IMG/VR virus record: IMGVR_UViG_3300012016_000003
Coordinates: 23,612-87,611 of that record
Length of the DNA: 64,000 bases
Strand: one strand, 5' to 3'
Source: a virus
Lineage: Duplodnaviria > Caudoviricetes
This document shows positions 11,399 to 48,322 of the stretch, piece by piece (within the stretch, counting starts at the first letter, position 1; each line of letters begins with the position of its first letter). The notes beneath the pieces were generated by a model. It had not been told where the DNA came from. It ran no database searches and saw only the letters and a list, made by a program, of their open reading frames with translations. A program made the position numbers and the translations under genes.

Positions 11399-11495
11399 TG
11401 GGAATAGTTCGGAGTTGCAAACCGAATGACAAGAGGTAAGTCAACACCTCTTTCCCGCTTTTTTCATCGTTGACATCATTATAAACAAAGTTGAC
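11399..11495 (+). ncRNA. Structured 5' leader (three-way junction with loop-pairing partners)
   Basis: P1 GGGA/TCCC, P2 TTCGG/CCGAA, P3 AAGAGGT/ACCTCTT; covaries with the copy at 47410. Confidence 0.6.
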
Positions 11496-11955
11496 AATGA
11501 CAAACGAGGAATTTATTGAGTTTATAAAACTCAAAGGCGAGAATTGGAAACCAGTTGAAGGATGGGAAGGGTGGTATTCTATATCTTCTTTTGGTCGTGT
11601 TGTTTCCTTGGAAAGAACAATACAATTAAAGAATGGAAAGAATTATCACATAAAACAAAAGCTACTAAAGCCTAATAAGACTATTCACAATGGAATATGG
11701 TATAATTATATATGCTTTCGCAAAAGTTGCAAAAAGTATGTATATGGAATACATAGGCTTGTTGCTGTTGCTTTTATCCCCAACCCAAATAATTACCCTG
11801 AAATTGACCATATAGATAGAAATGGGCTAAACAACCACATAAACAACCTACGATGGTGCAATCGCACTATGAACATGAGCAATAAAAACACAAAGCAAGC
11901 AGTAATTAATGCTCAACGTAAAAGGCGGCTGGCTGAATCTCTTGCCAATCAGTAA
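11491..11955 (+). mobile_element. NUMOD4-HNH homing endonuclease gene, antisense within the module
   Basis: ENWKPVEGWEGWYSISSFGRV (NUMOD4) and IHRLVA...DHIDRNGLNNHINNLRW (HNH_3). Confidence 0.88.
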
Positions 11956-11986
11956 GTCAAAGAACTATTCCCATTTGTTTGGGTTA

Positions 11987-12325
11987 TTAGACAGTTGTAC
12001 GTGACATTAGTTGCAATATGCCATCAAACCGATTGTTGAACACAAGGAAAACGCCAGTGCCACCAATCAAGTCTGCAACCGTAGCTGGAGTACCATCAAA
12101 GAGTGTTAATGCTCTTGTTGTTCCATTTAAGGTTATCGTGATTGGTAGTGTGGAAGTTGTTCCAGTGGGGATTGCATCGGAAAGCCGAACTGTAAAATAA
12201 CCTATCGGTTGTATTCTGCGAAACCCCAAAGCAATGTCAACTGACTCCGTTCCAACTGTCACATTTGTTGAAGGTAGGTAGGCTATACCACCTGCATTCG
12301 TTGTTATGTTGTTAAAACATCCCAT
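11987..12325 (-). CDS. Beta-rich hypothetical protein of the module
   Basis: 112 aa with alternating hydrophobic beta-strand patterns. Confidence 0.75.
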   Translation of the reverse strand: MGCFNNITTNAGGIAYLPSTNVTVGTESVDIALGFRRIQPIGYFTVRLSDAIPTGTTSTLPITITLNGTTRALTLFDGTPATVADLIGGTGVFLVFNNRFDGILQLMSRTTV

Positions 12326-12346
12326 ACAAAACCTCCTTTCGCCTAC

Positions 12347-13336
12347 TTAAAATACGATATTACCTCCGAACCCATTGCCACCGTACCATCCGTTATATCC
12401 ATTGGGGTAAAAACCACCACTTACATACGGTGTTGCGTTAAACACCTGCAAGTTTGGATATTGAACGCTAACAGTTTCGGGCATACGACACTTGATGTCA
12501 TCCACCTCGCGGGCGAGTGCGGAAATCTGACCGATAACGGGGGCAACTGCTTGCTGAACAACACCAGTGGTGAAGTTCTGGGACTTCAGTGTTGCTACCT
12601 CTGCCGTAAGAGCCGTAATCTCCCTATCCTTGCGGTTAGACTCCAACTGGTCTATCTTGTTGTCAAGAGCAAGATAGTTACGGTTCATCGTGTCAGTCAA
12701 TGCGTAAGTTTGTTGACAATCAGCCAACTGCTGTGCTGCACGTGTTGCGGTAATGTTGTCATTTACGCCGTTGATGCTGTTTTGGAGAGCATTTGTTTGT
12801 TGACAAAGAGCCAACTGATTGTCGCAGCAGCACTTCTGAATGATGCTTGCAAGGTTAGCATCACCTGCCTGTACTGCGTTAATCAGTTGCAAGGTTGACA
12901 TACCCTGTGCGTTTGCAATCTGATTGAGGGTGTTCTGTGCCGACTGAATACCTGCATTTGTTAAGTTGAAGTCCTGACCAAGCATTGTGCTCAATGTCTG
13001 GATTGCAGTTCTTGATGCCTCACCTTGGTTTGTGATTGCATTCATGATAAGTTCCCGACCCGAATCATTGGATAGCTGATTAGCCAAGAAAGCCGCACCA
13101 GAGTTTCCTCCGCCAAAGCCTCCATTGCCAAATCCACCACCGTTCCAGCCGAACATTGAAGCAATGATAGCAAGTCCAAACAAGTCAGCAATCCCGTTCA
13201 TTCCATAACCGAAACCGCCACCAAAGCCAAAACCATTACCCATACCGAAACCACCGATAGGGATAGAGAAAGGGATGTTACCAAGTCCACTATTGCCACC
13301 GCCATTATTGTCTGGTAACTGATAAATTTCTGCCAT
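12347..13336 (-). CDS. Gly-rich membrane/coiled-coil protein, first gene of the module
   Basis: G/F/N-rich N-terminus, TM-like IADLFGLAIIASMFGW, Q/N coiled coil with KCCC, and G/N/Y-rich tail. Confidence 0.8.
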   Translation of the reverse strand: MAEIYQLPDNNGGGNSGLGNIPFSIPIGGFGMGNGFGFGGGFGYGMNGIADLFGLAIIASMFGWNGGGFGNGGFGGGNSGAAFLANQLSNDSGRELIMNAITNQGEASRTAIQTLSTMLGQDFNLTNAGIQSAQNTLNQIANAQGMSTLQLINAVQAGDANLASIIQKCCCDNQLALCQQTNALQNSINGVNDNITATRAAQQLADCQQTYALTDTMNRNYLALDNKIDQLESNRKDREITALTAEVATLKSQNFTTGVVQQAVAPVIGQISALAREVDDIKCRMPETVSVQYPNLQVFNATPYVSGGFYPNGYNGWYGGNGFGGNIVF

Positions 13337-13535
13337 AATAATTTCTTTTGTTTTGAATTGTTTGAAAAAAAGTTTTTCTACTCACTTGTGTAACCGATTA
13401 CGCTTGTAAATGTATATTCAAAACAAATGAATTGCTAGCAATACTTATTTAAGTTCATTTCAAAGTTCTAATGAACTAATACACAAATAGTTACAAGGCT
13501 ATTTTATGGCAAGTTGATATTTTTTTTCAAAAAAC

Positions 13536-13570
13536 AAAAAAAAGATGGTAACATTACATTACCACCTTTT
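13536..13570 (-). terminator. Intrinsic terminator, possibly bidirectional
   Basis: AAAAGGTGGTAA-loop-TTACCATCTTTTTTTT on the minus strand. Confidence 0.65.
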
Positions 13571-13835
13571 CTTCTTAATTTTCATCTATAAACAACTTGT
13601 ATTCAACAAGTTATAGATTCTTGTCAAAATAAGCAAAAATTCTCATGCTTAATTTTCCCCAATTTATTTTTTTTCACTTTTTATAGTGCATAGAGGTTGA
13701 CCGTAATCATCCATTGCACTTTTTATCCATCCTAATTGTAGCGAAATCGCCATAATTAATCAAGGTCATCCCTCGGCACTCCCAAAAGTGTCATCAAGGG
13801 GTAGACGATGTATAGTAATATCCATTCCATAACTA

Positions 13836-16814
13836 TTACGAATTAGGTGTTGATTCCTCACTTGAATATGTTAGCCATGCGACCTTATTTGTAGCAGCAT
13901 TATACCTTCCATATCTAGGAATGTTAGTATATTCTCTTACGGTGCCACCCTTCCCATCTGGAATAAGATTATAAACAGCTGCATCAATGAATGTGAAATT
14001 AACACCGCAACATCCAAAATCTACTTGTTCGTAATCTATATCTCTAGCAGGAATATTTGAAGGAGGAACTGTGAATACAGTGTTATCAACAGGTAAAACT
14101 TTTTCTCTACTATTAAAATACATATGACATCCAACACTTTCGTAGTAACGTCCAGATGTTCCAGAAATTGAATGCACAAACGTATTCCCCCTTAATACAA
14201 CCATACTTTTAACTTGGTCGTCTGTGAGAATGACTTTATTCGCTGCTCCATTATCATTAGGATTAACTGTTCTTATGGCAAAATGTGAATAAGGGCGATA
14301 AGAATACCCCGATATTACAGTGTCGTTTACCATTATCCTATTATTGTATAAATACAACTTGAAATCCCAAGTTGCGCCATCTGCAAGTTGCACATCACCA
14401 GTACCACTTGTAACTATACTTGTCGGTGGTGCTATGGTAATAATTGCGCCAAGATAAGGTGGATAGGTGTAACCCTGCGGATAGGATATACCATCTTTCA
14501 CAGTCACTTCTGGGTCTGTAAAGGATGTATTATTGAAAGTACATCCTTCAAATGTAGCTGACTTGATGTTCCAAAAACTAAATGGTCCAGCATCAGTCAT
14601 ACCTACTTGATAACCAAATATATCAAACCAACAATTCCTGTATGTTACTGTACCTATACATGATGTCTTCCAAGGCAAGTCGCAAGTTTTGAAATGACAA
14701 TCCTCATAGATTACATCAGTTATTCCTCTTGTCTTTTGCGAATTATTAGTGGTAAATGTTACTAATTCGCAGTTATGGAACTTCATATAGCCGTAGCCAT
14801 TCACAACCCCGTCTACCTTAGTTCTGTCACCTACTTCCCAAACACCGCCTATATAGGTATCATAGGCTTCTACATTGCAATTCTCAACCAATGCTGGATT
14901 TATATATGCACCTATTGAAATCAGTTCATAGTAATGCCGTACTCGTGGGTTCAAGTATCGTAGCTGGGAATTGTAGAACCTTACTTTGTTGTAACTGTTT
15001 TCAAAGATGAATGACGTTGCCCTCAAGTCACAGTTATGCAATTCCAAGGCAGATAATGAATAATCATCATTGTCCCAATTAGCAGCAAGTCTTGAATATC
15101 CTCTATATACCACATTTTTCATAAACACATCCGAAGATACAATTATAGAGTCGTAAGTTTGGATGGTCTTGTCTACAAGTTCGATAGTCAAATCATAAAT
15201 AGCTATGGCACTGCAACCAAATAACCGACTCCAACTTGTTGGATACTTTTTATTTACCAACCGACCTGAACTTGGTCTATAAGTGTTATCTATTGTAAGT
15301 TTATTACCATTCCCATAAATGGTAAGTTTACGGGCGGGTTTATCTCTCACGGCTATCTCTCCGTGCTTGAAATCTACTTTATGGTTTTTACTTAAACTTA
15401 TTGCAGTACAAGAAAATAAAGAAGCATCTGGGTTTACTGTCATTGCCATCCAAATATCATCGAACCACACGTCCTTCATCACTTGGGAAAATGACTTGAT
15501 TATTTTCACATTCTCAAAGAATTGCACATCGGGACAATCAATAATGACTGGATTGCTTGTATCAATAGATGAATTACTAAAATCTATTGTTCCATTCTTA
15601 ATCTTACCTCCAGCATATTTAAGGACAACTCCATTGGCGGGCTTTATTGTGCCACCGTTCAAATCCATGTCATAGGCAATCTCATAGATTGTGTTTGGCG
15701 TGTTGAAAGCATCGGATGCAAGATAGTTTATCGGCAGACTTTCCGTTGTGTCGGTTTCCCATGTGTTTCCATTTCTTTTTATGTAATGGATAGTACCTTT
15801 ATCCATATAGGCAAATACCTTTCCATCTTCTACGCCAAAATTCACATCACTAGGCTTCTCTGCCCAGCCATCATAGTAGATGTCACTGAAAGCCCAACTT
15901 CCAGTATTCCATTGCCACTTAAAATAAACTTTATTTTGAGTTGTATTAAGCACAATAAATGGCGCAGACTTCCTGACACTCTTATACAATCTTGCTGGTT
16001 CGGAAGACGTTGCTGGCTTTGTGGCAAACGGGAATCTCTCTTCCTTTCCGTATTGCGACTTTCCACTTGGGTTTGTAGATGCATCGTATTCGGATGGGTT
16101 TCCCACAAAATACTCCGTAGCATAATCATACCCGTCTGGGTTAGAGTCCGATTTTGCAGAGGTTTTTTCAACTGATGTTCTTGTAACACTTTCAACGCCA
16201 TGTATCCATGTAACATTGGAGTAGGTCTTTACCACATCCTTTTGAACAAGGTTTAAAGGCACATGAGCATAGCCTTTGGATGAATTGGTGGTATCATGGT
16301 CACTTCCACCGCTACCACCTCCTTGTATCTGGATATTGCCTTCGCCCAGCAATGAATTTCCGTTTATGGTCTTGATGTTCGTTCCACTTTGCAAAGTTGC
16401 TTGCTTGCCATCCAAGGCTTGCTTGATGACCTTGTTTTGTACTGGGTTCGTACTAGTGGCACTCAATTCCGAGTCGACAGTATAACTTCCCTCACCACCT
16501 TCACCACTTGTCCTTCTTGTGGCTTCGCTCACGGGTACTAGCCTAAAGTTCAACAATGCAAGACTTTCTTGTCCGCTTGCCCCATAGTTCTTGTAAAGCA
16601 CAAGCCTATGAACACCAAGGGATTTTTGTTCTGATGCGTAGAACTTTGTGGTAACATAATCTCCATCCCTTGTGAACTCCATCGTCCTAGTAGTAGTACT
16701 TGAAGGATTCTCTGGGTCTGGCATCGTCATTACCAATGTAAGGTTTAAACCCTCCAAAGCCGTATCACTATGCAAGGTCAACGTGGCATTCTTGTTAATG
16801 GTTAATGTTAGCAT
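13836..16814 (-). CDS. Tail spike/fibre with probable parallel beta-helix (depolymerase-like)
   Basis: TLQSGTNIKTINGNSLLGEGNI phage-fibre motif; C-terminal half rich in short beta/Asn-ladder repeats. Confidence 0.65.
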   Translation of the reverse strand: MLTLTINKNATLTLHSDTALEGLNLTLVMTMPDPENPSSTTTRTMEFTRDGDYVTTKFYASEQKSLGVHRLVLYKNYGASGQESLALLNFRLVPVSEATRRTSGEGGEGSYTVDSELSATSTNPVQNKVIKQALDGKQATLQSGTNIKTINGNSLLGEGNIQIQGGGSGGSDHDTTNSSKGYAHVPLNLVQKDVVKTYSNVTWIHGVESVTRTSVEKTSAKSDSNPDGYDYATEYFVGNPSEYDASTNPSGKSQYGKEERFPFATKPATSSEPARLYKSVRKSAPFIVLNTTQNKVYFKWQWNTGSWAFSDIYYDGWAEKPSDVNFGVEDGKVFAYMDKGTIHYIKRNGNTWETDTTESLPINYLASDAFNTPNTIYEIAYDMDLNGGTIKPANGVVLKYAGGKIKNGTIDFSNSSIDTSNPVIIDCPDVQFFENVKIIKSFSQVMKDVWFDDIWMAMTVNPDASLFSCTAISLSKNHKVDFKHGEIAVRDKPARKLTIYGNGNKLTIDNTYRPSSGRLVNKKYPTSWSRLFGCSAIAIYDLTIELVDKTIQTYDSIIVSSDVFMKNVVYRGYSRLAANWDNDDYSLSALELHNCDLRATSFIFENSYNKVRFYNSQLRYLNPRVRHYYELISIGAYINPALVENCNVEAYDTYIGGVWEVGDRTKVDGVVNGYGYMKFHNCELVTFTTNNSQKTRGITDVIYEDCHFKTCDLPWKTSCIGTVTYRNCWFDIFGYQVGMTDAGPFSFWNIKSATFEGCTFNNTSFTDPEVTVKDGISYPQGYTYPPYLGAIITIAPPTSIVTSGTGDVQLADGATWDFKLYLYNNRIMVNDTVISGYSYRPYSHFAIRTVNPNDNGAANKVILTDDQVKSMVVLRGNTFVHSISGTSGRYYESVGCHMYFNSREKVLPVDNTVFTVPPSNIPARDIDYEQVDFGCCGVNFTFIDAAVYNLIPDGKGGTVREYTNIPRYGRYNAATNKVAWLTYSSEESTPNS

Positions 16815-16818
16815 TTCT

Positions 16819-17472
16819 CTAATTGTTTAAGTATTCCGTAGGGTCAAAGACTAACTTTTCTGGATAACCTTGAGTAAAGTCATAACCCATTATTTCTTCT
16901 TCACTATTTAACCCACTTATAGCCATCTTGTGAGTAGCCGTTACAATGGCACAAGCATCGGCATACCTTTGTATCTTCGCCAAGGCTATCTTTCCCTTTT
17001 CAATAGGGATATTGAGTATCATACCCAAGATAGGCACGATGATTGATGTTTCGCCAAGTAGTTCGGCAGCTTCAATACTTGCCTTGTAGGTGTTCCGTGT
17101 GTCCCTATCTATCCAAGTAAGTTGCTCTCCAACAAAAAAGCCGTTTACATCAATAGAGTTGTCATACTCCACAAGTTGCTTTAGCTTATCTTCTTTGTAT
17201 AGGTCTAGCATACTTGTAGGTTCTTCTTCGGGAATGTCCTCTGGTGTTTCGGCTTCCTCTTGCTCCCTTTCCCACCTTTCAAGTTCTGCAAGGTAGACCC
17301 CACGCATTTCCTCGGTAATCTCATACCAGTTATTCACGGAGTCATTCTTGCCAAGATAAAGCCTATTGGATATGATTCTATCACTTATAGGTACACTAGC
17401 CTTTTGCGTTATCCAATACCCCGTAGATGGGGTAAGGATTCTCAGTCCGTTATCTTTCTCTATCAGTTCCAT
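16819..17472 (-). CDS. Tail fibre assembly-type protein (DUF4376-like C-terminus)
   Basis: WIDRDTRNTY...IQRYADAC...YDFTQGYPEKL pattern; lies between fibre genes. Confidence 0.65.
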   Translation of the reverse strand: MELIEKDNGLRILTPSTGYWITQKASVPISDRIISNRLYLGKNDSVNNWYEITEEMRGVYLAELERWEREQEEAETPEDIPEEEPTSMLDLYKEDKLKQLVEYDNSIDVNGFFVGEQLTWIDRDTRNTYKASIEAAELLGETSIIVPILGMILNIPIEKGKIALAKIQRYADACAIVTATHKMAISGLNSEEEIMGYDFTQGYPEKLVFDPTEYLNN

Positions 17473-17476
17473 ATCT

Positions 17477-20400
17477 TTATGCTATTGTATATCCCTTTGC
17501 CGTTGCCAATGCAATGTCAGCCTCGGTCAATAAAGCCTTTGTAGCTGATGCAAATGTTATCGTATAGGTAGTACTACCTTCGGAATTGTCACCACATTCG
17601 TTAATCACATTTAATGCTGATTGTCTTGTAAGTTTTGATGCACTTGAACAAGTTATGTTACATTTACATCCCCTAAATCCACCAAAATCGGTAATGTTTG
17701 AAACTCCATAGTATTGCCCATTCAAAGTACAAGAAGTAGCATTTGGGCATATAATAACACCAACTTTTTTTAATTTAGTAGTACCAGTAAAATTGTTCAA
17801 TGTTGTTACTGCCCCATTGTAACTTGAAATGTCTATATTTCCAACTTCTGCCAGATTGGTGCATCCTTGAAAAAGGTAAAGATTTCCAAATACTCCTTTT
17901 GATGAATATGGAACTTCGGAAAAATCCAAATTACCGACTTTAGTTAAATTTGAGCAATAACCAAACATTCGATTAGCACCGTGGTCGCTCTGCGAACCAC
18001 CAATTTGCGCCTTCTTAACGAAAACATTTCCAATCTCGGTAAATCCAGTACCTCTAAACATTTCTGCTGCATTTGTGACATTTGTCAAGGAGTCGAGAAA
18101 GCTTTGTGATACGGAAGTTAATGCTGAACAACCATAAAACATATTTTTTGTAGTTGTAACCTTGCTGAAATCGGCATTAGAAGGAAATTCAATACTCGTT
18201 AATGCTGAACAACCATAAAACATTGATTGCATTGATGTGACCTTGCTGAAATTTATAGATTCCAAGAAACTGACATTATTTAAAGATGAACATCCTTGGA
18301 ATGTACTTGTTAAACCAGCAAAATTAGAAAAGTCGCTTTCTTGGTCAAAGGTTATTGTTTGCAATGATGAACAATTTTGAAAAGCACGAGCAAGTGATGT
18401 GCATGAACTTGTAACTTTTAATGGAGCAACTGTAGTTAAAGCCGTACAACCGTTGAACAAGTCATACGGAGCACCTTCTAGCAAGAAGTCGCCTTGCACA
18501 TTGAAGCTTACCAAAGACTTGCAGCCAGCAAATGTGTATTCATCATTTACAGTACAATTCTTGTTAAATGTAAGACTTGTAAGAGAAGAACAATTCCTAA
18601 ATGCTTCGGCATCTATTGTAACATCATTAACAAATGGGTTATTTATTATAAGCTTCGTGCATCCAGAGAAAGCACTCAAATAAATCCTAGTTGCATAACT
18701 TGGTTCTGCATTCACTAGTGCCGTACACCCTTGCAGGCATTGCCTACCATAAATAGTGACTGTAGATGGAATATCTAAAGTCACAAGAGCCGTACAACCG
18801 ATGAATGCAGTAGAACCAAATGTTGTTGGAGTAGACCCATTAAAATCAATGGTTGCAAGTGAAGTACAATGATAACAAAAACCTTGGCTAGCATTACCAA
18901 TCATTGATGGGTCAACTCCTATCACGCCAGTAAATGTACTTGGAAACTTAATTCTTGTTAGTTCAGTGCATCCAGTAAACACACCTCTTGTTTCTCCAAC
19001 CTCATTCGTGCATCGGTAGCTTACAAAGTACTCAAATTCATCAAATGAAGTTAGTGCAGTCTTGTTTTTTAGGTTTCCATTAAACCTTGTCACTTTAGCA
19101 GCCTCACGAGCGTAAAGTAGTGTTGCACTTTCGGACACTTTCAAGGTGTTATAGATAAAGCTTAACAAGCTTGCAAATCCAGCGTTTGTTTCGGCATTTA
19201 TAAGAAGCAAGTCATTAAGGTAGATACGCACCGTATTGGAAAATATGGTAGGGTCATCACTCAACCTTGCATAAACATCCGTATAGCCATAAGTACTATT
19301 TATTGGAGATACCACATTGTTTAGAATAGAAATCTTTTGGTTATCATACACATATTCCACAAATCTTGACTTTGTGTTCTTTGGCGGGTTGAGGGTATAG
19401 GAGAGGGTGCAGGTAGTACCTTTCTTGTAGTCTATGGCTTCATTGTCAACCACAAGGTTTTTTATCTGCAATATCCTAATCCTCGCAAGCGCAATTTCCC
19501 TAGTCACCCTAACCTGATTGTTCCAAGTTGATGTGGCAGTAACGGAAAAGTTTTCGGTAGTTCCATTCTTTGAGCCGCTAGGTTCAAAGTTTGCGAAGTC
19601 AAGTGTTGCCGTGTAGTCGGTTGTTCTAAGTGCTATCGCTGCTGGAATACTATCACTGCTCCACTTTACTGACTTGTAGGCAAGAGTGTTTGCACCTACC
19701 TCATAGGTTCTAGTGATACCAACGGCTTCATCCTCATAGATGGTTTCTATATCTTCTTTTCCAGTCAAAGTAAGTCCAATAGCGTCCTTGCTAGGGATAA
19801 CCGTCTGCCCAGACTTTATCGTAAGGTAAGGGAAGTATGCTTGGATGGCTTCTGCATAGCCACTGACAAGTGTTTCAAACTCTATCGTTCCACTTATGTA
19901 AGCCGTATCGCTTGTTTCCCTTCCTTGTGCATCAAGGGCATAGTAGTTCTTTTCGTTTGCATCGGCATCAAGACCTTTGGCTATTCTATAAAGCATCTCG
20001 GCAACTTGTCCGTTAGGGTCATCGGCACTAGTGACCGTTTCGTCAATATCAGTAATCCTTATGTATGTCAATGCGTTCTTTCCTTGCGTATCGTTGGAAT
20101 AGTAGATGTCCTTCAATATCTGGAAACTCCTTAACATTGAACAACCCTCAATATCAACACTCTTTACGTTTGGTGCGCAAGCCGTAACATCAAGGCTTGA
20201 AAGGAACTTTAGGTTCTTCAAGGAAAGGGCGGTCATTGTGGATGGCAAAGTCAATGTTTCAAGTTTAGAACCCTCGGCAAAGGTAAGACCAGCCACTTGT
20301 GTACCCGTAAGATAGACAGTCCGTATTCTAGGGCAATTACTCAAATCAAGAGAACCACTAAGGTTTGTGGCATTCCTTGCATCAATCAAGGTAAGTGAAG

Positions 20401-23400
20401 GGCAATTAGAGAATGTAAGCATAGCCACTCCATTTGACACCTTGGTTGCATCCTCATCACCAATCTTCAAGGTTTCAAGTCGCTTGCTTGAAATCTGCAA
20501 GTTTGTTGCACTTGACCTATCAATGTCAAATGCTGCAAGGTCGCCAATGGAACGGAAGTAATCGGCAGCCATAATATACACTGTTGTATTGTTACCACCG
20601 ATACCATCCATTGTTCCAACCTCGCCATCCCATGTGCGTGAAAAATACCTAACACCTTGACCAGAAAAGACGCAAGGGTACAAGTCCATTGCAGGTGTAA
20701 GGCTGAACCTTTGTGGATTTTGGGTACGGAATGCTATTCTACCGAGCGACACATCGGTATAGCTTGCAAACGGCCCGTAACGGAACTTACTCATGCAATA
20801 CACCAACCTTCTTTCCACCCAATACATCTCGCTCTCCAAGCTATCTCCGTGTGACTGTGCCGTAGGCAAAACATCCACATTGTATTGTCCTTGCAAGGTG
20901 GCATAGTAGGCATCCTCGTATGAATATCTTGCATCGTGGTTGTATGCGCCCTTTGAGAAGTAGTTTTGCGCCTTATTCCAATAGTATTCCTTGAAGAATG
21001 CCATAAGTTTATCGAACACACCACCTTCACTAGAGCCGCCAAGGGAAATCATCGCATCAAGAATATCCCTACCCATCTTCCTTATCTCATCCTCAAAGCA
21101 CTGGTCTACCAAAGTCCAAAAGGCACTATCCTCGCCCTTGAACACCCTAGCAACCTTATCCGAACTAGTCCAGTCCTTGAACTCAATGGAATACTTCTTT
21201 GCCGAGTTACCTTGGTTGTCAATATCAAAGATGGTATCAAGGTCATCTTGCCGCCATCTCCACTTGCCACCATCGGAAAGGCTCTTGAACTTGTAGGGGT
21301 AGGAGTTCTTTGCATGGTTATCAGTTGCACCGAACATCACAAGGAAGGTATGGCAAAACAAGGTATCATTCAAGTTCCAAGGGGAATCACTTGCCAGCAT
21401 AGCCGTTCTAAACCTACGTCTACGCATTTCACGCAAGTATTCATCCTTCTTTGCAAGCGCAAGGTCTTCAATGGTGCTTATGCTTAAAAGCCCCATAGTG
21501 GTAAGAATAGCCGCATCCAACTCATCCTCATTACCCATTGTTTCCACCTCCTTCAAGGAAAGGTATTGGTTCTTTTGCGTATCGGTGTTAAAGTCACCGA
21601 ACACACCGTATGTGGATAATCCAAGTTTCTTTAGGATATTCGCATTAAGGCTTGACGTGGTGGTCATATCAAGATTTTCAAGCACGTTCACACCCGATGC
21701 CTTGTAGCTATTGTCCTTTATGTCGAGGTAGTATAGGTTGTAGTCACCATCAAAGTAGAACTCATAGTATAGGAATGGTCTATCATCGTCATCCTCATTA
21801 GGGGTAGAACCGAAACCAGTAACATCGGAATTTATCTTTGTCAATGCAGCTGCTACCGTCTGCACACCGAACCTCGATGTGGTCAAACCCATAATGAAAG
21901 GAGAATTGAGGTAAGCCAACTCGTATGCAGGCTTGAACTCTTCGACCAACTTTGCCATTATTTCCGTACCATCCTCTTCGGTGTCTTTGCCATAGCAGTT
22001 ACCAACTTCCCATCCAGCTTCATACTCATCATTGTTTATTCTTATGGAAAGGCTCTCGGCATTGAACACCACGTCATTGTTCCAAGGGTAACGGAACACA
22101 GCAAGACGCTTATCATGGTCAAGACCTTCCATTGTTATCAATGATTTCTTTAGGTCTACATTGTTTATCTTGGCATTGTACTTGAACGTAGGCTTATCCC
22201 CTTTATCTGGACCGATTGTGAACAATCCTATAAACTCATACTTTTCATTACCAAGGTCATCGTATGTCCTTACAAATCCGTAGGCTGGGTATTGGAATAC
22301 AGCCGTTCTACCACCACCTTCGTTTGTACCCGCGCACATATCGTGAAGGTCATTGTAGGCACTTGTAGTACCCATCTTGTGTGATTGTTGGCTAGAGGCA
22401 TAGTTCTTCTTTGCCGTTATTCGCATTACGGGGGAATGAGTATCGCCATCAAACTTGACGGTTTTGGAAAGTGCGGCATTGCCCCAAGTACCCGTAGAAC
22501 GATTATAGCCATATTGAACATATACTTGCTTTTCATATTTTGAAGAGCCTACCTCGGTTGTGGTCTTGTCAATTCTGTCACGGAAGTTCCAACGGAAGTA
22601 GTTCATAGAGGTTGTACCTTGTCCCATGTGCTCCACGTCATTGATTTTCCAATCCCAAGTAGGATGAGCACCAAAGTGCATTTCAAGGTTTGCCCTACCG
22701 ACTTCCTTCTTAGTCCAGTCGGAATATGAAGGTATGGTAGGCTTTACCCAAGGCTTTATTGCCTTACCATCGGCATCTTCCTTGTAAATCATCTCCACAA
22801 TAAACCAGTTAGCCGTGGTGGATTGGATAACCTTTTCATAGCTTACATCACCATCCTCATTCATCACATCATTTTCCCTTGCGTTTGCAGCCCTCTTTTC
22901 CTCTATGGTGGGCAATGATGCTACATAGTTGGTTGTAGCCGCTAGGAAGCCAAATGCTTGGTTGTAGACCCTTATTCCGTACACATATAGGTTAGCCGAA
23001 TCGCTGCCCAAGATGATAGGTGCGCTAGTGATAAAGTTGTCATTCCCTTCAAGCGCGAACTCACACTTTATTGTTCCGTTCACGAAGATGTGGCAGAACC
23101 TTTTCCCCCAATTCTTGTAGTCTTGTGAGAACACGATGATTAGGTCTATGTCATCCTCATCTCCAGTATGGTAGCTCTGCACGTTGTCGAAAGTGCTCTT
23201 TCTTTGGCTTGAATGCACGCAAACCTCATCGGGTCTAATCCTTATTCCAGTAAAGTTGTCAGGGTTGTCTTGCGGCATTGAAGCGATGGTTATCACATTC
23301 TCGTTATAATTGGAAACAACGGATGTCTTGTAGTTTATCTCAATGGCTATGTAGTTGCTCGTTATATTCAAAGGCGCATAGTTTATCTGGCACTTTGAAC

Positions 23401-30645: not shown

Positions 30646-31632
30646 CCTATTTATAGTATAGCTGCCATATTGTGCTTTGATACTATACTTTCCTCTTGGC
30701 AGTGAGATGCCATATTTACTTTCTAGTTCACTTCTGCTTATTTTCATTACGCATCTTTTTTATTTCACATATTGTTTTACCTAGAACAAGCATTTCATGG
30801 TATGAAAAGTTGTTACCTCTTGCGACATTGCAATCATAACAACAAACAACCACATTGTCTTTTGTATGACCTCTCGAATTGTCAATTCTATCAAGCCCAA
30901 GTCTTGTAGTGTCGCCACAATAATGGCATTTCCCATTCATTATTTTTTCTTGTAGCCATTGATTGTCTATATCACACTCAAACCCTTTCTTTTTGTCTTT
31001 AAGCCTATATTGAGAAAGCATTTTTGAAACTTTGTCTTTCCTTTTTTGCTCGCTAGACAATTCATTTATGTCGGTTATAACACCTGCAAGGTTCTTATTC
31101 TTTCCGAAAAGAATTTGTTCTATGGTATAGTTCTTTCCCTTAAAGAATCTTTGCCTTACGCCTTGGTAGTTTAAGTCATATTGCTCACACCATTCTACAA
31201 GGGTTTTAGTTTCTCCATTATAGGTTAGCTTAGCAAGCTTGCTAATGTTTTCAAGACCTTTCTCCACCCATTCACAATTATCCTTGCTATATGGCTTTGA
31301 TTTGTCCTTTCTGCATAGAATCATACCTTTAGACCAACCTGCGGAAGTGTCCTTGTCAAAGTTTTCAAAAAACTTCCACTCTTCGGGAAAACCTATAGAC
31401 TGCCCTTTCTTTGTATTAACAACGGAACGCCAAGAGTTGTATTTACTCCCTTTGCTCCTATCATAGCCTTTATAGTCAGCCCTTGATTTCCAAGATAAAG
31501 ACAAGGCTTGTGATTTCGTTAATCCTTCATACTTTTTTGCTGTCATATAACTTCTACATATTCTTCCGTTTGTAACAATGGCTTTCCGCTTGGAATGTTT
31601 AACCTTTTGTAAAATTCCTCATATCCAGCCCT
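30646..31632 (-). mobile_element. Intron-like insertion (984-987 nt) inside the lysin gene
   Basis: Separates the two halves of the lysin motif; AATAGGG direct repeat at both ends; contains an HNH ORF. Confidence 0.75.
30728..31546 (-). CDS. HNH (His-Me finger) homing endonuclease
   Basis: CHYCG...LDRIDNSRGHTKDNVVVCCYDCN at the C-terminus, a degenerate HNH-like N-terminal part, and an LTYNGETKTLVEW helix. Confidence 0.82.
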   Translation of the reverse strand: MTAKKYEGLTKSQALSLSWKSRADYKGYDRSKGSKYNSWRSVVNTKKGQSIGFPEEWKFFENFDKDTSAGWSKGMILCRKDKSKPYSKDNCEWVEKGLENISKLAKLTYNGETKTLVEWCEQYDLNYQGVRQRFFKGKNYTIEQILFGKNKNLAGVITDINELSSEQKRKDKVSKMLSQYRLKDKKKGFECDIDNQWLQEKIMNGKCHYCGDTTRLGLDRIDNSRGHTKDNVVVCCYDCNVARGNNFSYHEMLVLGKTICEIKKMRNENKQK

Positions 31633-39916: not shown

Positions 39917-39917
39917 A

Positions 39918-40906: not shown

Positions 40907-40940
40907 TTAGAATAAAGGTTTAAGGCTATGTTTTCGTAAA

Positions 40941-40980
40941 CGTGGGGGTGCGTGAGGGTTTCATCCCTTATTGCACCCCT
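40941..40980 (+). terminator. Stem-loop after the tail tube gene
   Basis: GGGTGC-GTGAGGG...CCCTTATT-GCACCC. Confidence 0.5.
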
Positions 40981-41034
40981 TGTTTATGATATACAAGCCA
41001 AAAGGAAAAGTTTACGAAAACAAAAGAAACAAAG

Positions 41035-41662: not shown

Positions 41663-41913
41663 ATGACTACCTTTTTAGGTTGAGCATTGCACAAATACAA
41701 TTCATGGCGGTAGACAACACGCACACCAAGTACTTGAAAGGTAGGGATAAGAAGGTTTGGACTACATACAAGGAGGCTTTGGAATCACAGCAAAAGTTGG
41801 ATAACTTTATGGCTGGTTTCGGCAAGTTCGATGACTTGAAAGAGGGCGAGGAAATAGACATCCCAGTCAAGCCAAAGAACAAGGACAAAATTATTGACAA
41901 GAAAACAAAATAA
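41512..41913 (+). CDS. Tail assembly chaperone -1 frame extension
   Basis: The -1 frame opens just before the T9 run and stays open to TAA at 41911-13 (FTQKIGEYAYKF...DAADFLRAFPQY...). Confidence 0.7.
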   Translation, partial: FFFTQKIGEYAYKFTADEEEEINGDSITIYGSTVIADAADFLRAFPQYRLDDYLFRLSIAQIQFMAVDNTHTKYLKGRDKKVWTTYKEALESQQKLDNFMAGFGKFDDLKEGEEIDIPVKPKNKDKIIDKKTK

Positions 41914-41922
41914 CACAAAGAT

Positions 41923-44900
41923 ATGGATGATGTTCTAATTGTTGGCAAACTTGATGATGGCGAATTAAGAAAGGCTATCGACTCGCTTGTTAATGACGTG
42001 GCTAACAAGTCTACTCAAATGGCACTTACCTTTGAACAAGCTATGGATAAGATGACCAATGCCATGAAAAACTTTGCCATTAGCCAAAATGTTAGCGTTG
42101 ACCTTATGCAAGAGGCTTGGAAGAAGATGTCGCAATCCTTTGATGCTATGGTAAAGGCGCAATCCTCTGGCACTGGAGGTTTTGGAGGAGGTGGAGGTGG
42201 AAGAAAAAAGTATGATGATGACACTATAGGCGCACTCAACGAACAAGTCAATCTTCAAAAACAAGTGGTGTTTGAGCAGCATCGAGGGACAGCAGAAGCA
42301 CAAGAGGCTGTAAACAAGCATAGGGAACTGCAAAGGCAATTTAAAGAGGAAACCACTGAAAGAAGAACACTTTCGGAAGTTATGGCAATGCAAGAAAAAA
42401 GCGTTGATGCCGTTGCCAAGAAAATGAAAGCATTGAAGAATGTTTCCGTTGACCCCAACAATACCATCGAGGTTAAGAAACTTGGCGATGAATACCAAAG
42501 GCTAAAAAGGCTTCAAGCGCAACTGTTAGGGCAAAGCATCCAACAAACAAAGTCAAACAACTATCTTGCCCAGTCATTCGGCTACATACGAAATCGTATA
42601 GTCTACGCCCTTACACTTGGTGCTATAACAAATTTCACAAAGCAAGTGTATGAAATCCGTGGTCAATATGAACTTCTGGAGCGTTCTTTAGGTGTGCTCA
42701 TAAATTCCTTTGAAAGAGGTTCAAAGATATTCCAAGAGTTGAACGCAATGTCTATAGAGTCACCGTTCACACTTATGGAGTTGGCTGGTGCTGCAAAACA
42801 ACTTACGGCATACAACTTTTCGGCAAAGGAGGTTGTTGACACTACAAGAAGGCTTGCAGACCTTTCCGCAGCATTGGGTGTACCAATGGAGCGACTGACA
42901 TACAACCTTGGGCAGATTAGGGCGCAAACGGTTCTTACGGCACGTGATGCCCGCGACTTTGCAAATGCTGGCTTACCAGTTGTAAAGTTGCTTTCCGACT
43001 ACTACACCGAACTTGAAGGTAAGGTTGTCAGCACTGGAGATGTGTATGACCGAATGAGCAAGAAGATGGTTTCCTACACTGATGTAATGACCGTCTTGAA
43101 CAAGGCTACCGATGAGGGTGGAAAGTTCTTTGATTTCCAAGCAAAGCAAGCCGAAACCCTACGTGTTCAAATGGCAAACCTTACACTTGCCTATAACAAT
43201 ATGCTTAATGAGGTTGGTAAGGCGAACCAAGGACTTTTAACAACGCCAGTAAAAGGCTTGAAGGTGTTGTTCCAAAATTGGGAGTCTATTGCACGTGTAA
43301 TCAAGAATTTAGGTTTATCATTCATATTCCTAAAAGCCACACAACTTGGCATGATGCCAGCATTCGGTGCATTGAATGCACACTTTGTTTCAACTGCACG
43401 TTTGGCGACTACATTAAGGGGTGTTGTTGTTTCACTCGGTTCTGCATTCAAGGCTCTATTTCTTAATCCTTGGACTTGGGTATTTGCTGGTATATTCGCA
43501 ATTACCGACCTTATAGGACAATCAAAAAGGGCAAGGGAAGAAGTTGCAGAGTTGAACCAAGAAATCAAGAAGGGTGCAGGAGAGGCTTCTAGTTCAAATA
43601 TAGAATACTTGATGAACAAGGGAAACCAAGCCACAAGAGAAGCAGCAGAAAAGGGCACACTTTCAGCAGAACAAGGGGAGAAAGCTTGGCAATCACTTGA
43701 AGAACAAATAAACACGTCTGCAATTTCAGCAAACAACCTTCTTGGGGAACTTTGGCAAATAGAAGATGTAAATGAACGTGTGGCAAAAGGCTTTGACTAT
43801 GTGGAAAGCATACAAAAGTCCCAAGCTGCATTGCAAGACCTAAAAGACAACACTATCAACGTCACACAAGACTACGGGTGGTTTGGCATATTTAGGGAAG
43901 GTCTAGTTAGCGACTTGAAAGATTACAAAGATGCTATAGCAGAATTTAACGAGCCTAACATCGAATCAATCAGTGCTTCGGCTATTAAAGATGCAGCTGA
44001 GTTCCGAAAAGAGCTTGATGTAACAGCTGAAAGCATTAACAATTTCTTGCAAATTCATGGAATAGAAGACCCAAAACAAGTAAGAGAAATACTTGAACGC
44101 ATCAAGATGCAAATAAAGATGCAAAATCCTGAGATAAAAGGGGAACTTGCACAGTTATTTGACATTGAACTAGACAAGAGGATGTACGAACTTACAAATG
44201 GCACTGTTGACAAGAATGAATCCTTGTGGAATATGTTTTTAGAAAGATTAGTAAGCCACTATCATTCTGCATTCGGAGATATAAATGAAGATTGGATTAG
44301 AAACTACAAAGAAGACCTATCCCCAGCACAACAAGAAGCCATTGATAAGAACTTAAAGTATTTCCAAGAAACTATGCCTTGGTATTACAAGGCCGTAGAG
44401 GGTATGGTTGCCGACGCAAGCAAGTTGCGCATAAATATCGGTTTGGCTTTCAATGTTCAAAGACTTACTGATTTACAAGACCAAGTAAATGAGAGAATAA
44501 AAAACGCATCTAAAGTACTTGACTTTGGAAATGCTTCTTTTCTACCGAACCAAAACGAGGATTTGCCAGAATGGGTTAAAAGGCAACAAGACGCAATAAA
44601 AAAATTGAAAGGAGATATTGAAACCTATTCTAAAGACAATAGTGCGTGGGCTAAACAAAGGATAGATGAAGCAAACACGGAAATCGGGCAACGGACAAAT
44701 CTTTTGGAATTGTTCGGTCAAACGGCAGAGGTTGCGAAAAAAACAACAACAAAACGGACTAGCACGGAAGATGTTCTTGGCAAGGCTTTGCAAAAAGAGG
44801 TTGAAATAATAACTAACATCCAAAAGAAATACAAGGACTATCAAAAGATAGGTGTTGATGCCCAAACCTCAATAACAAAGGCTACGGATGAATATGCAAG

Positions 44901-47364
44901 GACACTTGCAAGCACAAATGCTACATTGAACCAATATGGTATCAAGACAACCAAGAGTGGCAAGGAACTTGCAAATATGGACTTGCGTGACCTACGTTCT
45001 TACTATCAAGGCTTGCTTGCTATGGCTGCTGGATTAGGAAATGCAAAGGGTATAGAGGTTCTTGAAAAAGCCATATCAAACATCAATGAGGAAATCACAA
45101 AGGTAGACTACAAGAAGATTACCGATGGTTTAAATAACGAACTTGGCAAGTTGAAGGATGAATACGAGTTAGCCATTGAACTTGATGCAAATCCCGAACT
45201 CGGCAATATGTTTACCGATATGTTTGGCATAACGCCAGAAATGTTATCCGAAATGCCACACACGGTAGGACAACTTGTAGACAAATACCAAGATGAAATA
45301 GACAAACAACTAAAGGGTAAATTCAACACACCGTTTGACATTCTAAAGACCGACATAAACAAGTGGGTTAAAGATACTAACGTTGACCCCAATAGCGACC
45401 CTGTTAAGACCCTTACAAGTAAACAAAACGATGCAAGGGAAATGGTAAAGAAAACTTTTCTTGACACCCAAAAAATGATTGATGATTACATCAGTGAATA
45501 TGGCGACCAACAACAACAAATTGAAAAAATAGAAAAAGAAAAGAATAATGCCTTGCTACAGTTGAACAGTATCTACAATACCGAGGCTTTGAGGCAAACA
45601 AAAGAATACATCAATGCCAAGGAAGCAATAGAAAATGCAGCAAGGATAAAATCAGCAAAAGCGTCTTTTGATGCCCTAAAAAAGACAACCGACTATGAAA
45701 GATTCTTTAATGCCATTGATACATTAACATCAAAAGATGCACTCGCTATAAAGGCAAAAATAAAGCAAGGAATCATTCAGGCATTCAAAGATGGTGGTCT
45801 TACAGTATCGGAATTCAGAAGGGAAATAAAGGCACTTGAAAGTCAATTTGACAAGCTTACTGAATCATCTTCACTTTGGACTAATTACCTTAGTGGAGGC
45901 TTCGACAAACTTATTCAAAAAGCCAAAGAAACTGGTCAAGAGATTGAAGCCATTGGGGAAAGCATTTCTATAAAAGGTACTATTGATGATAAGGATAAGA
46001 ATTTCTTGCAGTCAATGGGCAGCATATTTAGCAATGGAAATGGTGGCGATATGGATTTTACATCGCTTATGAACAAGTTTGGAGGAAATATGAAAGGTCT
46101 TGGAGATGCCGTTAGCCAAGCAGGGCAAGGAATGCAACAAGGCGCAGGAGGATTTGCAAGTGCTGTAGCCGTAATAGACACGATTATCAAGAACGTACAC
46201 CAAACGGTTCAAGCAATCGGTTCTGTTATTGACGAACTTGATTCAGTTAGGAATGAAGACAGCAAGATAAGCAATGCCTATTGGGAAGGATTTAAGAAAT
46301 TCGACAATTATGCCATGTCTGGTTGGGAAAACCTAAAAAGTGGAAATGTGGCAGGTGCTATGGGAGATACCGTCAATAGCATCATTTCGGTATTCAATAC
46401 TTTCTCAAATGCAAAGAATGAAAAAATAAACAAGCAAATAAAAGAGTCCGAGCGCACCGTAAAAGACCTTGAAAATGCGTACAAGAACCTTTCTGCTGCC
46501 ATAGATGATTCTCTTGGAAATGCTGAAATAAAGGCACGTAGGGCAGCGGTAGAAAACAAAAAATTACAACTCGTCGAACTGGAAAGACAACTCCAACTGG
46601 AACAATCAAGAAGCAGTAAAAGACGGGATGAAGATAGAATTAAGGAATTACGAGGACAAATAACCGATGCAAGGAATGAAATCAAAGACCTCGCGGCAGA
46701 AATAACAAGCACATTATTAGGGAATGACATAAAATCGGCAGCAGAAGATTTTGTTAGTACTTGGGTAGCTGCTTGGCGACAAGGCGAAGATACAATGGAT
46801 GCTCTTAACAAGAAATTCGATGGCATGATAGACAATATGATTGCCAAATCTGTTGCATCATACCTTGTTTCAAAACGCCTCCAAAGAATCTTTGATACGG
46901 TCGATGAAATGACAAGTGAGAAATCAGAAGGTGGTGCTGAAATCACAATGAATGAATTAAAGCGGATAAAAAGCCTTATAGGTGACAAATCTATTGCAGA
47001 ACAAATCAATCAAGATTTGACAAACCTTTATGGAGCACTTGATATTGCTTATGGAGTCGATAGCGAGACAAACAAGAACTTGTCAGCTTTACAACAAGGC
47101 ATACAAGGCATTACCGAGGACACGGCTGGGGCAATAGAAGCCTATATGAACGGAATGTCGCAGCAAGTGTACCTACAAAGCGGTGTGCTTACCCAAATTC
47201 GTGACACAATACTAGGGTTTGAACTTGATGTGCAGCTTGGGGTATCTTCACAAATGTTACTACAGCTACAAAACAACTATATTGTTATGCAGTCAATACA
47301 GTCAATGATGGAGGGATGGACTACACCTAGTGGTCAAGGCATTAGGGTAGAACTTCTTAGTTAA
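41923..47364 (+). CDS. Tape measure protein
   Basis: 1813 aa, helical; SPFTLMELAGAAKQLTAY...LADLSAALG tape-measure motif. Confidence 0.9.
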   Translation: MDDVLIVGKLDDGELRKAIDSLVNDVANKSTQMALTFEQAMDKMTNAMKNFAISQNVSVDLMQEAWKKMSQSFDAMVKAQSSGTGGFGGGGGGRKKYDDDTIGALNEQVNLQKQVVFEQHRGTAEAQEAVNKHRELQRQFKEETTERRTLSEVMAMQEKSVDAVAKKMKALKNVSVDPNNTIEVKKLGDEYQRLKRLQAQLLGQSIQQTKSNNYLAQSFGYIRNRIVYALTLGAITNFTKQVYEIRGQYELLERSLGVLINSFERGSKIFQELNAMSIESPFTLMELAGAAKQLTAYNFSAKEVVDTTRRLADLSAALGVPMERLTYNLGQIRAQTVLTARDARDFANAGLPVVKLLSDYYTELEGKVVSTGDVYDRMSKKMVSYTDVMTVLNKATDEGGKFFDFQAKQAETLRVQMANLTLAYNNMLNEVGKANQGLLTTPVKGLKVLFQNWESIARVIKNLGLSFIFLKATQLGMMPAFGALNAHFVSTARLATTLRGVVVSLGSAFKALFLNPWTWVFAGIFAITDLIGQSKRAREEVAELNQEIKKGAGEASSSNIEYLMNKGNQATREAAEKGTLSAEQGEKAWQSLEEQINTSAISANNLLGELWQIEDVNERVAKGFDYVESIQKSQAALQDLKDNTINVTQDYGWFGIFREGLVSDLKDYKDAIAEFNEPNIESISASAIKDAAEFRKELDVTAESINNFLQIHGIEDPKQVREILERIKMQIKMQNPEIKGELAQLFDIELDKRMYELTNGTVDKNESLWNMFLERLVSHYHSAFGDINEDWIRNYKEDLSPAQQEAIDKNLKYFQETMPWYYKAVEGMVADASKLRINIGLAFNVQRLTDLQDQVNERIKNASKVLDFGNASFLPNQNEDLPEWVKRQQDAIKKLKGDIETYSKDNSAWAKQRIDEANTEIGQRTNLLELFGQTAEVAKKTTTKRTSTEDVLGKALQKEVEIITNIQKKYKDYQKIGVDAQTSITKATDEYARTLASTNATLNQYGIKTTKSGKELANMDLRDLRSYYQGLLAMAAGLGNAKGIEVLEKAISNINEEITKVDYKKITDGLNNELGKLKDEYELAIELDANPELGNMFTDMFGITPEMLSEMPHTVGQLVDKYQDEIDKQLKGKFNTPFDILKTDINKWVKDTNVDPNSDPVKTLTSKQNDAREMVKKTFLDTQKMIDDYISEYGDQQQQIEKIEKEKNNALLQLNSIYNTEALRQTKEYINAKEAIENAARIKSAKASFDALKKTTDYERFFNAIDTLTSKDALAIKAKIKQGIIQAFKDGGLTVSEFRREIKALESQFDKLTESSSLWTNYLSGGFDKLIQKAKETGQEIEAIGESISIKGTIDDKDKNFLQSMGSIFSNGNGGDMDFTSLMNKFGGNMKGLGDAVSQAGQGMQQGAGGFASAVAVIDTIIKNVHQTVQAIGSVIDELDSVRNEDSKISNAYWEGFKKFDNYAMSGWENLKSGNVAGAMGDTVNSIISVFNTFSNAKNEKINKQIKESERTVKDLENAYKNLSAAIDDSLGNAEIKARRAAVENKKLQLVELERQLQLEQSRSSKRRDEDRIKELRGQITDARNEIKDLAAEITSTLLGNDIKSAAEDFVSTWVAAWRQGEDTMDALNKKFDGMIDNMIAKSVASYLVSKRLQRIFDTVDEMTSEKSEGGAEITMNELKRIKSLIGDKSIAEQINQDLTNLYGALDIAYGVDSETNKNLSALQQGIQGITEDTAGAIEAYMNGMSQQVYLQSGVLTQIRDTILGFELDVQLGVSSQMLLQLQNNYIVMQSIQSMMEGWTTPSGQGIRVELLS

Positions 47365-47376
47365 ATACTTAAAAAA

Positions 47377-47408
47377 TTTGGAAACATTTAGTATTTTGTG
47401 TATCTTTG
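47377..47408 (+). promoter_or_regulatory. Bacteroidota promoter of the second HNH cassette
   Basis: TTTG (47377-80), 20-nt spacer, TATCTTTG (47401-08). Confidence 0.75.
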
Positions 47409-47409
47409 T

Positions 47410-47500
47410 AATAGGAATAGTCGGGTCTGGCCACCCGATGATAAGGGCGAAGCTTGCCCCGCCCTTTCCTATTTACATAGGGCAAGAATTAGAAAGGGTA
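47410..47500 (+). ncRNA. Structured 5' leader (three-way junction), same type as 11399
   Basis: P1 AATAGGA/TCCTATT, P2 TCGGG/CCCGA, P3 AAGGGCG/CGCCCTT; loop CTTGCCC pairs with downstream GGGCAAG. Confidence 0.65.
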
Positions 47501-47506
47501 AGTTTT

Positions 47507-48322
47507 ATGAAAAAGAAGACTTTAGAAGAAGTTTTGTTGTTATTCAACAAAACATGGGGGGATAGGTATAATTATAGACACATCACCCCACAAGCGTTTA
47601 AAGGGGCTTCCAAAGAAGTGCCAATAGAGTGTAACAAGCATGGCATTTTTTGGATGACACCATGCGACCATTACCACCATCATGGATGTCCTGATTGTGA
47701 CCATGAACGCAAAAAAGAACCAAAGTTTTATGAACGCAAACTACTGTTCGGTGTTGGGAAATTGGATGTTGATTATTCTATTAACACAAATGAACTTAGC
47801 AGAGAAGCTTATCGAGATTGGTATGAAATGCTAAAAAGGTGTTATAATGAGAACAATTTAAAACTATACCCAACGTACCGTGATTGTTATGTTTGTGAAG
47901 AATGGAAATGCTTCTCAAACTTTAAAAAATGGTTTGAAGATAATCACATTAGCGGATATTGCCTTGACAAAGATATACTCATAAAAGGGAATAAGAAATA
48001 TGCACCAGACACTTGTTGTTATATACCACAAGAGATAAACAAACTTTTATTAAACAAAAAAATGTGTAGGGGTAAATACCCTATTGGTGTTTACAAATCA
48101 ATAAGGAATGGTAAATATATATATTATTCTGCAAAATTTCATAAAAATGGAGAAGATGTAAATCTTGGCTATTACCCTACGCCACAAGATGCCTTTCAAG
48201 CATACAAGGCAGCAAAAGAATCACACATTCAAGATGTTGCAACTCTTTATTTTGAACAAGGTAAAATCACTAAAAAAGTATATAATGCGCTTTTAAATTA
48301 TGAAGTAGAAATAACGGACTAA
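47507..48322 (+). mobile_element. Free-standing HNH-type endonuclease with N-terminal zinc domain and C-terminal AP2-like domain
   Basis: IECNKHG...GCPDC, LDKDILIKGNKKYAPDTCCYIPQEIN and LGYYPTPQDAFQAY; likely start ATG47507. Confidence 0.75.

Follow-up and report, generated by a model that had tools for sequence, protein, structure and literature searches.

A predicted three-way-junction leader RNA with a duplicated loop target in phage nuclease cassettes

Why do two unrelated nuclease genes of one phage start with the same structured leader RNA, and what could this RNA do there? The 64,000-nt stretch of DNA that was analyzed (in the following the window) is part of the complete 87.6-kb virus record IMGVR_UViG_3300012016_000003 (Duplodnaviria, Caudoviricetes). 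It contains two HNH endonuclease genes, HNH1 and HNH2, and a leader of about 58 nt was found about 35 nt upstream of each of them. A previous sequence-only reading had proposed that a portable switch RNA lies between a promoter and each gene and keeps the nucleases off by alternative loop pairing. Judged by comparison of its members, the leader is a widespread family at the 5' end of self-promoted phage gene cassettes, most of which encode selfish nucleases. It probably acts as a translational switch of two mutually exclusive pseudoknots, which would set the enzyme level.

Structure and distribution of the leader

Both elements were located where the sequence-only reading had placed them (copy 1 at 11399-11458, copy 2 at 47412-47472; Table 1). 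They share a three-way junction of the helices P1, P2 and P3, in which P2 and P3 are capped by the loops L2 and L3, and this junction is the minimum free energy structure of each copy (-17.5 and -24.7 kcal/mol, z-scores -2.1 and -2.6). The stems had been said to differ in sequence and to stay paired, and indeed both partners differ in 6 of the 18 pairs, and no pair is lost; AUA and GAY recur as junction strands. The suggestion had been a covariance model of both copies; here one was built from copy 1 only, and it recovered copy 2 with 36 bits (E 2e-8); the next match in the 64 kb scored 12 bits. With model R3 the scores were 68.6 bits for copy 1 and 53.2 bits for copy 2. As described before, a promoter lies just upstream of each leader; both promoters are of the Bacteroidota type (TTTG-N19/20-TAnnTTTG), with 3 nt between promoter end and model match in both copies. 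Also the two genes proved to be unrelated, i.e., HNH1 has NUMOD4 and HNH_3 domains, HNH2 matches the family phrog_953, and no similarity between the two proteins was detectable.

The single-sequence model was iterated, and a MAFFT alignment was found to misplace a gap between the two window copies. The resulting alignment has 74 members in 39 clusters at 80% identity. Pairing counts and covariation were taken on this alignment, which was fitted to the model and thus favours structure: for 18 pairs and 74 members, 95.2% of the cells are paired, compared to 73.6% in shuffles. All three helices covary, with changes in both partners at 14 of the 18 pairs. Covariation scored 0.561, compared to 0.18 in shuffled alignments (none of 500 reached 0.561) and 0.06-0.10 with the partners slid, and the effect size together with the slid controls makes chance an unlikely explanation. 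G-U pairs occur in 96 cells and A-C mismatches in 10, indicating that the fold is formed by the sense strand, i.e., in the orientation of the downstream gene. The sequence AUA in J1/2 is invariant (74/74), GA in J2/3 is nearly so, and AAG opens P3; the helices vary freely. Folded singly, only 73 of 96 sequences adopt the junction as their minimum free energy structure, and therefore the loops were read from the model alignment.

The distribution was revealed by several searches. When the window leader was used as BLAST query, the phage collection gave no match. The first pattern scan of viral contigs with GGAATAGT...ATGAYAAG yielded nearly exclusively chance matches, of which L081 alone was real. 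A protein-independent pattern scan led to at least 60 model-confirmed loci (79 were checked among the matches listed). Each of the six closest HNH1 relatives is preceded by the leader, which is also present at about 30 loci among the relatives of another HNH gene. Its hosts are phage contigs of IMG/VR and the cultured Parabacteroides phage PD491P1, in which it occupies positions 21507-21562 of OP172815.1 and precedes an I-HmuI-like endonuclease gene; in addition, it was found in a few bacterial assemblies, namely a Prevotella metagenome-assembled genome (MAG), Gallibacterium melopsittaci and an Eubacteriales MAG. The distance from the end of the element TAnnTTTG to the model match is 2-9 nt in 55 of 73 members, and six have TATAAT. 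This distance places P1 at the 5' end of the transcript.

The downstream genes fall into 39 groups by their first eight protein residues. The majority encode I-HmuI-like NUMOD4/HNH_3 endonucleases, and others encode HNH proteins of phrog_953/374, TnpB, a TnsA-like nuclease, tyrosine integrase and O-like replication initiators. The proposed portable leader between a promoter and unrelated nuclease genes was thus recovered well beyond the window. The search for homologs and their downstream genes yielded many covarying members, and showed that the leader is confined neither to HNH genes nor to phages of Bacteroidota. The TnpB genes (404-409 amino acids, OrfB_IS605 plus Cas12f1-like TNB) lie behind a promoter-leader unit on phage contigs of 48-96 kb, at L294:122-1348 on the minus strand and at about 11 similar loci (L290, L313, L318, L345 and others), with the L3 word GUCAGUA and the repeats UACUGGC. 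The leader therefore also serves RNA-guided nucleases.

The composition of the family is also characteristic. The linker after P1 has a median length of 9 nt and consists of 64% U and 1.6% G, and in 62 of 73 members U accounts for at least five of the nine nucleotides that follow the G/C-rich P1. A simple scan for a terminator after P1 found none, and the family has no conserved leader peptide. Purines make up 83% of the 5' strand of P3, and P3 and P1 together form a 12-bp purine/pyrimidine stack with an unbroken pyrimidine 3' strand (11431-11457 and 47443-47471 in the window; family alignment A5). A triple helix of the U-rich linker with this purine-rich stack, or a role of the linker in alternative pairing, was considered; in a classical pseudoknot the strand is expected to run through the minor groove.

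Pairing partners of the two loops

L3 had been proposed to pair either with L2 or with a site near the start codon. The pairing with L2 was not borne out, because L2 and L3 of the same leader are no more complementary than L2 and L3 of different leaders. The actual alternative partners are two direct repeats downstream of the junction. Using a criterion of at least 6 bp with at most one G-U within 70 nt downstream, L3 is complementary to at least two sites in 57 of 66 non-redundant leaders, compared to 6.6% with L3 from unrelated leaders, so the proposed pairing near the start codon holds for the family. In the window, GUUGAC at 11469 and 11490 and GGGCAAG at 47480 had been recognized correctly, and the second site of copy 2 (GGGUAAG) had been overlooked.

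In total 44 different L3 words were found, e.g., GUCAAC, CUUGCCC, AGCCGAU, UUCUGAGG, UGCAACC and UUAGCC, and each has its own pair of repeats. Site 1 begins a median of 9 nt after the model match, and site 2 lies against the start codon or overlaps it, ending 0-6 nt upstream in 46 of 50 leaders; the spacer between them is 49% A. The mean duplex energies with L3 are very similar (-10.2 kcal/mol for site 1 and -9.9 kcal/mol for site 2). Where the two repeats differ at interior positions, 16 of 26 differences keep the pairing with L3 via wobble. In members that combine a TATAAT-type promoter with a Shine-Dalgarno sequence, site 2 is this sequence itself, i.e., UAGGAGG in L327, GGAGGCUAAU in L237 and UGGAGA in L302. 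The orthologous leaders at the HNH1 locus of related phages (L123-L128) have two L3 words, each with matching repeats, which indicates compensatory change at a single syntenic locus.

Members lacking the repeats also exist. In a Candidatus Prevotella equi MAG (L449:5341-5403, plus strand) a junction match of 42.8 bits has no L3 repeats and lies 13 nt before a terminase-like open reading frame (ORF). Such members suggest that the junction may also be functional by itself.

The second loop has a different peculiarity. In all 74 members L2 holds a 6-nt palindrome of the type U-N4-A, usually with AG just 5' of it, and five forms were observed (UAGCUA, UAAUUA, UGGCCA, UUGCAA and UCAUGA). The two central letters were left free in the pattern scans, and nevertheless they were self-complementary in 65 of 65 confirmed loci, compared to 56 of 94 chance matches. 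Four different palindromes occur among the orthologous leaders at the HNH1 locus. The centre of a palindrome cannot pair inside one loop, and it thus points to pairing between two molecules or to a symmetric DNA site. Self-complementarity that is kept through compensating changes in five forms is what would be expected of a kissing loop. On the other side, the AU-only form UAAUUA, which is present in 23 of 74 members, has a predicted duplex energy of just -0.4 kcal/mol, which argues against a strong dimer.

A probable translational switch and competing explanations

One loop can hold one site at a time, and hence the two pseudoknots would exclude each other. Pairing over the region from -15 to +5 blocks the 30S subunit. 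L3 on site 2 would therefore prevent ribosome loading (off), and L3 on the decoy site 1, which would act as an anti-sequestor, would leave the start free (on). Pairing over the ribosome site is also the brake on translation in the hairpins of T-even endonuclease genes (PMC2988022). Because the two pairing energies are nearly equal, the leader would be poised, and a small input could tip the balance. One candidate input is the order of transcription: site 1 emerges before site 2, and a new transcript would accordingly begin in the on state. Alternatively, a factor could bind to the conserved junction, or a second leader, be it another mRNA or a short RNA that stops at the U tract, could dock via L2 and cover the free site.

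Several points weigh against this switch. Its direction of control is a prediction, and the sign could be opposite, i.e., activating as in the IncB and IncI-alpha pseudoknots. Two sites of equal energy compete for one loop, and for the trigger there are only candidates. The alignment behind the pair counts was fitted to the model, and some members (L449, L357/L315 and L306) lack the repeats or have a shortened P3.

A more specific version of the switch is a self-addressing, dose-sensing brake, which we put forward tentatively as a rather unlikely extension. A second junction, on a short terminated form or on another mRNA, would dock by L2 kissing, and its L3 would clamp the start in trans with the cis L3 held by the decoy. 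Multiplication of the phage genome, and hence of the leader, would then lower nuclease synthesis, and the free combination of L2 palindrome and L3 word would give each cassette a private address. If this is true, private addresses would let several nuclease cassettes coexist without cross-talk, of which there are three in this genome.

The same features of L2 and of the U tract bear on the explanation that the leader is both a small RNA and a messenger, like IsrK, phage P1 C4 and P4 CI. Most transcripts would stop at the U tract and give a three-way-junction RNA of 60-70 nt; this short RNA would dock on read-through mRNAs by L2-L2 kissing, and its free L3 would cover the second repeat and the cis L3 the first, so that output falls (or rises) with leader dose. 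We regard it as improbable, and it would be compatible with the switch and would supply its trigger. The order of promoter, structured RNA and U tract (at least five of nine U in 62 of 73 members) is the layout of a small-RNA gene. The palindrome in 74 of 74 members, with 65 of 65 confirmed loci as opposed to 56 of 94 chance matches, the four palindromes at one orthologous locus, and the three palindromes and three L3 words in this genome fit this view. There is also precedent: IsrK in its short form targets its own read-through mRNA, and the CI RNA of P4 has two pairing sites, seqA and seqC (PMC4825925). However, the simple scan detected no terminator, P1 has just five pairs and closes a branched structure, and the UAAUUA duplex of 23 members is very weak. 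Clearly less probable is that a metabolite, or a host or phage protein, binds at the junction (AUA, GA and the AAG of P3) and picks the pseudoknot, in which case the leader would be a riboswitch or would be operated by a protein. The constancy of AUA in 74 of 74 members and the near-invariant GA between freely varying helices would be explained by such a platform, and so would the members that keep the junction without repeats. The unpaired core, however, comprises only about 6-7 nt, the downstream genes do not share a metabolic theme, a neighbouring protein common to the loci was not seen, and no riboswitch of Rfam matches.

Two further explanations were considered. According to the first, to which we give very little weight, the leader does not switch: a helix at the 5' end guards the mRNA against 5'-end-dependent decay, or the leader is self-cleaving or recognized by an RNase. 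P1 starts about 0-3 nt from the predicted transcription start, and the 12-bp stack of P1 and P3 with its continuous 3' strand resembles the acceptor/T-arm minihelix of tRNA; yet this explanation leaves unexplained both the covariation of L3 with two repeats at the start site and the L2 palindrome, and no ribozyme family matches. We consider it most improbable that the element acts at the DNA level, with the repeats and the inverted L3 copy, or the L2 palindrome, as operator for autorepression or as homing or recombination site. In principle two direct repeats and one inverted copy are readable on DNA, and I-TevI does repress its own promoter through an operator (PMC2988022). A DNA-binding protein would have to cope with 44 L3 words, which differ even beside HNH proteins that are 79% identical, and unrelated proteins follow the same layout. 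Furthermore, the differences between the repeats are biased to G-U-compatible changes, the helices covary rather than keep their sequence (with 96 G-U pairs), and the AG 5' of the palindrome is strand-specific.

Cassettes, related systems and significance

The positions of the features in the window are summarized in Table 1. The HNH1 cassette is syntenic in the six related phages with the loci L123-L128. The HNH2 cassette is missing from the related phage G001, in which a homologue of 48324-48923 begins 8 nt past the tape-measure gene, so that by comparison the cassette is a clean insertion. G001 has an HNH2 paralogue at another locus (L540:1640-1720, minus strand), between homologues of window positions 7248-7472 and 7711-7902. 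It has no leader, starts 8 nt past the upstream gene behind AAGGAG and is translationally coupled. The leader thus accompanies self-promoted cassettes and not a protein family. No leader was found with HNH2 relatives of at most 45% identity, and model R3 gave no match at the 272-aa ORF at 30728-31546 on the minus strand of the window.

Table 1. Features of the two leader-nuclease cassettes in the window
Feature	Position	Strand	Remark
Copy 1 promoter	11365-11395	+	Bacteroidota -33/-7 type; TTTG 11365-11368, 19 nt, TATATTTG 11388-11395
Copy 1 P1	11399-11403 / 11453-11457	+	
Copy 1 P2	11407-11412 / 11422-11427	+	J1/2 = AUA
Copy 1 L2 palindrome	11415-11420	+	L2 = AGUUGCAAA; UUGCAA
Copy 1 P3	11431-11437 / 11446-11452	+	J2/3 = GAC
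Copy 1 L3	11438-11445	+	AAGUCAAC
Copy 1 U-rich linker after P1	11459-11468	+	UUUUUUCAUC, read from sequence
Copy 1 site 1 (putative decoy)	11469-11474	+	GUUGAC; perfect complement of L3 GUCAAC, duplex -8.7 kcal/mol
Copy 1 site 2	11490-11495	+	GUUGAC; 1 nt between its end and ATG at 11497
HNH homing endonuclease 1 (HNH1)	11497-11955	+	NUMOD4 + HNH_3; antisense to neighbouring genes
Promoter-leader-HNH2 cassette	47365-48323	+	missing from related phage G001
Copy 2 promoter	47377-47408	+	TTTG 47377-47380, 20 nt, TATCTTTG 47401-47408
Copy 2 P1	47412-47416 / 47467-47471	+	
Copy 2 P2	47420-47425 / 47434-47439	+	
Copy 2 L2 palindrome	47428-47433	+	L2 = UCUGGCCA; UGGCCA
Copy 2 P3	47443-47449 / 47460-47466	+	
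Copy 2 L3	47450-47459	+	AAGCUUGCCC
Copy 2 site 1	47480-47486	+	GGGCAAG; perfect complement of L3 CUUGCCC, -13.3 kcal/mol
Copy 2 site 2	47496-47502	+	GGGUAAG; L3 pairing includes one G-U; 4 nt before ATG at 47507
HNH endonuclease 2 (HNH2)	47507-48322	+	phrog_953 family match

The HNH1 cassette is flanked by a perfect 12-nt inverted repeat (11399-11410 / 11962-11973), which would allow the 5' strand of P1 of copy 1 to pair with the mRNA's 3' end. As a family feature this repeat was rejected, because it is present in this copy alone among 73 members, and the matches elsewhere are 9-mers at the frequency expected by chance.

The iterated models detected a third leader copy in the genome, outside of the window at G000:C1:13119-13185, which brings the total to only three leaders; no two of them have the same L2 palindrome or the same L3 word. 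The third copy precedes a 182-aa ORF of unrecognized family, which is followed by an RNase H gene, and it has an AUG inside each L3 target repeat. Five iteron-like direct repeats of gttagaaatttaata lie directly upstream of its promoter (G000:C1:12900-13120, L406:400-620). The locus may be a replication origin with an initiator module.

The sequence-only reading had not recognized a named motif, and none was found: at the gathering score no family of Rfam 15 matches the 64-kb window or 11 further motif loci. When each window leader was compared with Rfam at E values up to 10, only chance matches were obtained (snoRNAs, MicC, Termite-leu), and the C4/CI/IsrK model was not among them. Ribozymes (hammerhead, twister, pistol, hatchet) gave no Rfam match either, and junction strands of 3, 3 and 0 nt are unlike the hammerhead core. 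An invariant junction and two predicted alternative pseudoknots would suit a riboswitch, for which neither a ligand nor a theme among the genes nor a known class was found. More than 10,000 viral RNA candidates have been catalogued without names (PMC10690425), and the leader may be one of them. In the papers searched the leader is not described; the unnamed candidates of that catalogue were not compared. The kind of element is known, i.e., an RNA leader that controls translation by start-site pairing, and the family itself is apparently new. Its new features are, as predicted from the alignment, that one loop is offered a target and a decoy copy and that the second loop is always palindromic.

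The analogy to phage P1 C4 and P4 CI, which had been drawn before, is reasonable in the sense of "works like". As in C4 of phages P1 and P7, CI of P4 and IsrK of Gifsy-1, a structured head of a phage transcript has a loop complementary to sites in its own transcript (two in P4; here in 57 of 66 leaders compared to 6.6% in the cross control), and the controlled gene is harmful, which is a likeness to a leader before nuclease genes. The present leader has a U-rich tract after P1. IsrK serves as the short RNA and also heads the mRNA that it targets (PMC4825925). In contrast to these systems, both sites of the leader are downstream, they are direct repeats at the start codon that share one loop, and there is a palindromic second loop; in addition, even at E values up to 10 the leader does not match their Rfam model, and any short form of it is a prediction.

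Three other systems are similar in part. In the IncB repA and IncI-alpha repZ leaders an upstream hairpin loop pairs beside the ribosome-binding site of a dose-sensitive gene. According to Asano and Mizobuchi and to Praszkier and Pittard, their pseudoknot reportedly activates translation; it needs a translated leader peptide, and an antisense RNA blocks it. The present leader differs in that it has no conserved leader peptide and has a second, decoy site. L2 resembles the dimerization initiation site of HIV-1, a kissing loop of 8-9 nt with one or two 5' purines, a variable 6-nt palindrome and often a 3' A; unlike in HIV-1, L2 is part of an mRNA leader, its palindrome is often AU-rich and weak, and the dimer is only predicted. 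The proposed RNA-pairing brake on translation is shared with the hairpins at the ribosome-binding sites of T-even homing endonuclease genes (I-TevI, I-TevII, I-TevIII, segB and Aeh1 mobE). These are local, form only on long early transcripts and are bypassed by a late promoter inside the hairpin (PMC2988022). The promoter of the present leader, in contrast, lies upstream of the whole structure, and the start site would pair with the distant loop of a three-way junction, for which a decoy competes.

Taken together, the leader offers a testable RNA design, i.e., one loop with two nearly equal partners, the start site and a decoy, and a second loop that stays palindromic through five forms. A cultured phage-host pair is available, because Parabacteroides phage PD491P1, which grows on P. 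distasonis, carries the leader. With its exchangeable pairing words the 58-nt leader is a candidate for a programmable part that controls translation, also in Bacteroidota, for which we know of few such control parts. Phage genomes carry homing endonucleases and TnpB as passengers that are potentially harmful, and to our knowledge it is largely unknown outside of the T4 family how the dose of such nucleases is restrained. The leader would be a common portable control module for unrelated selfish nucleases in gut and environmental phages.

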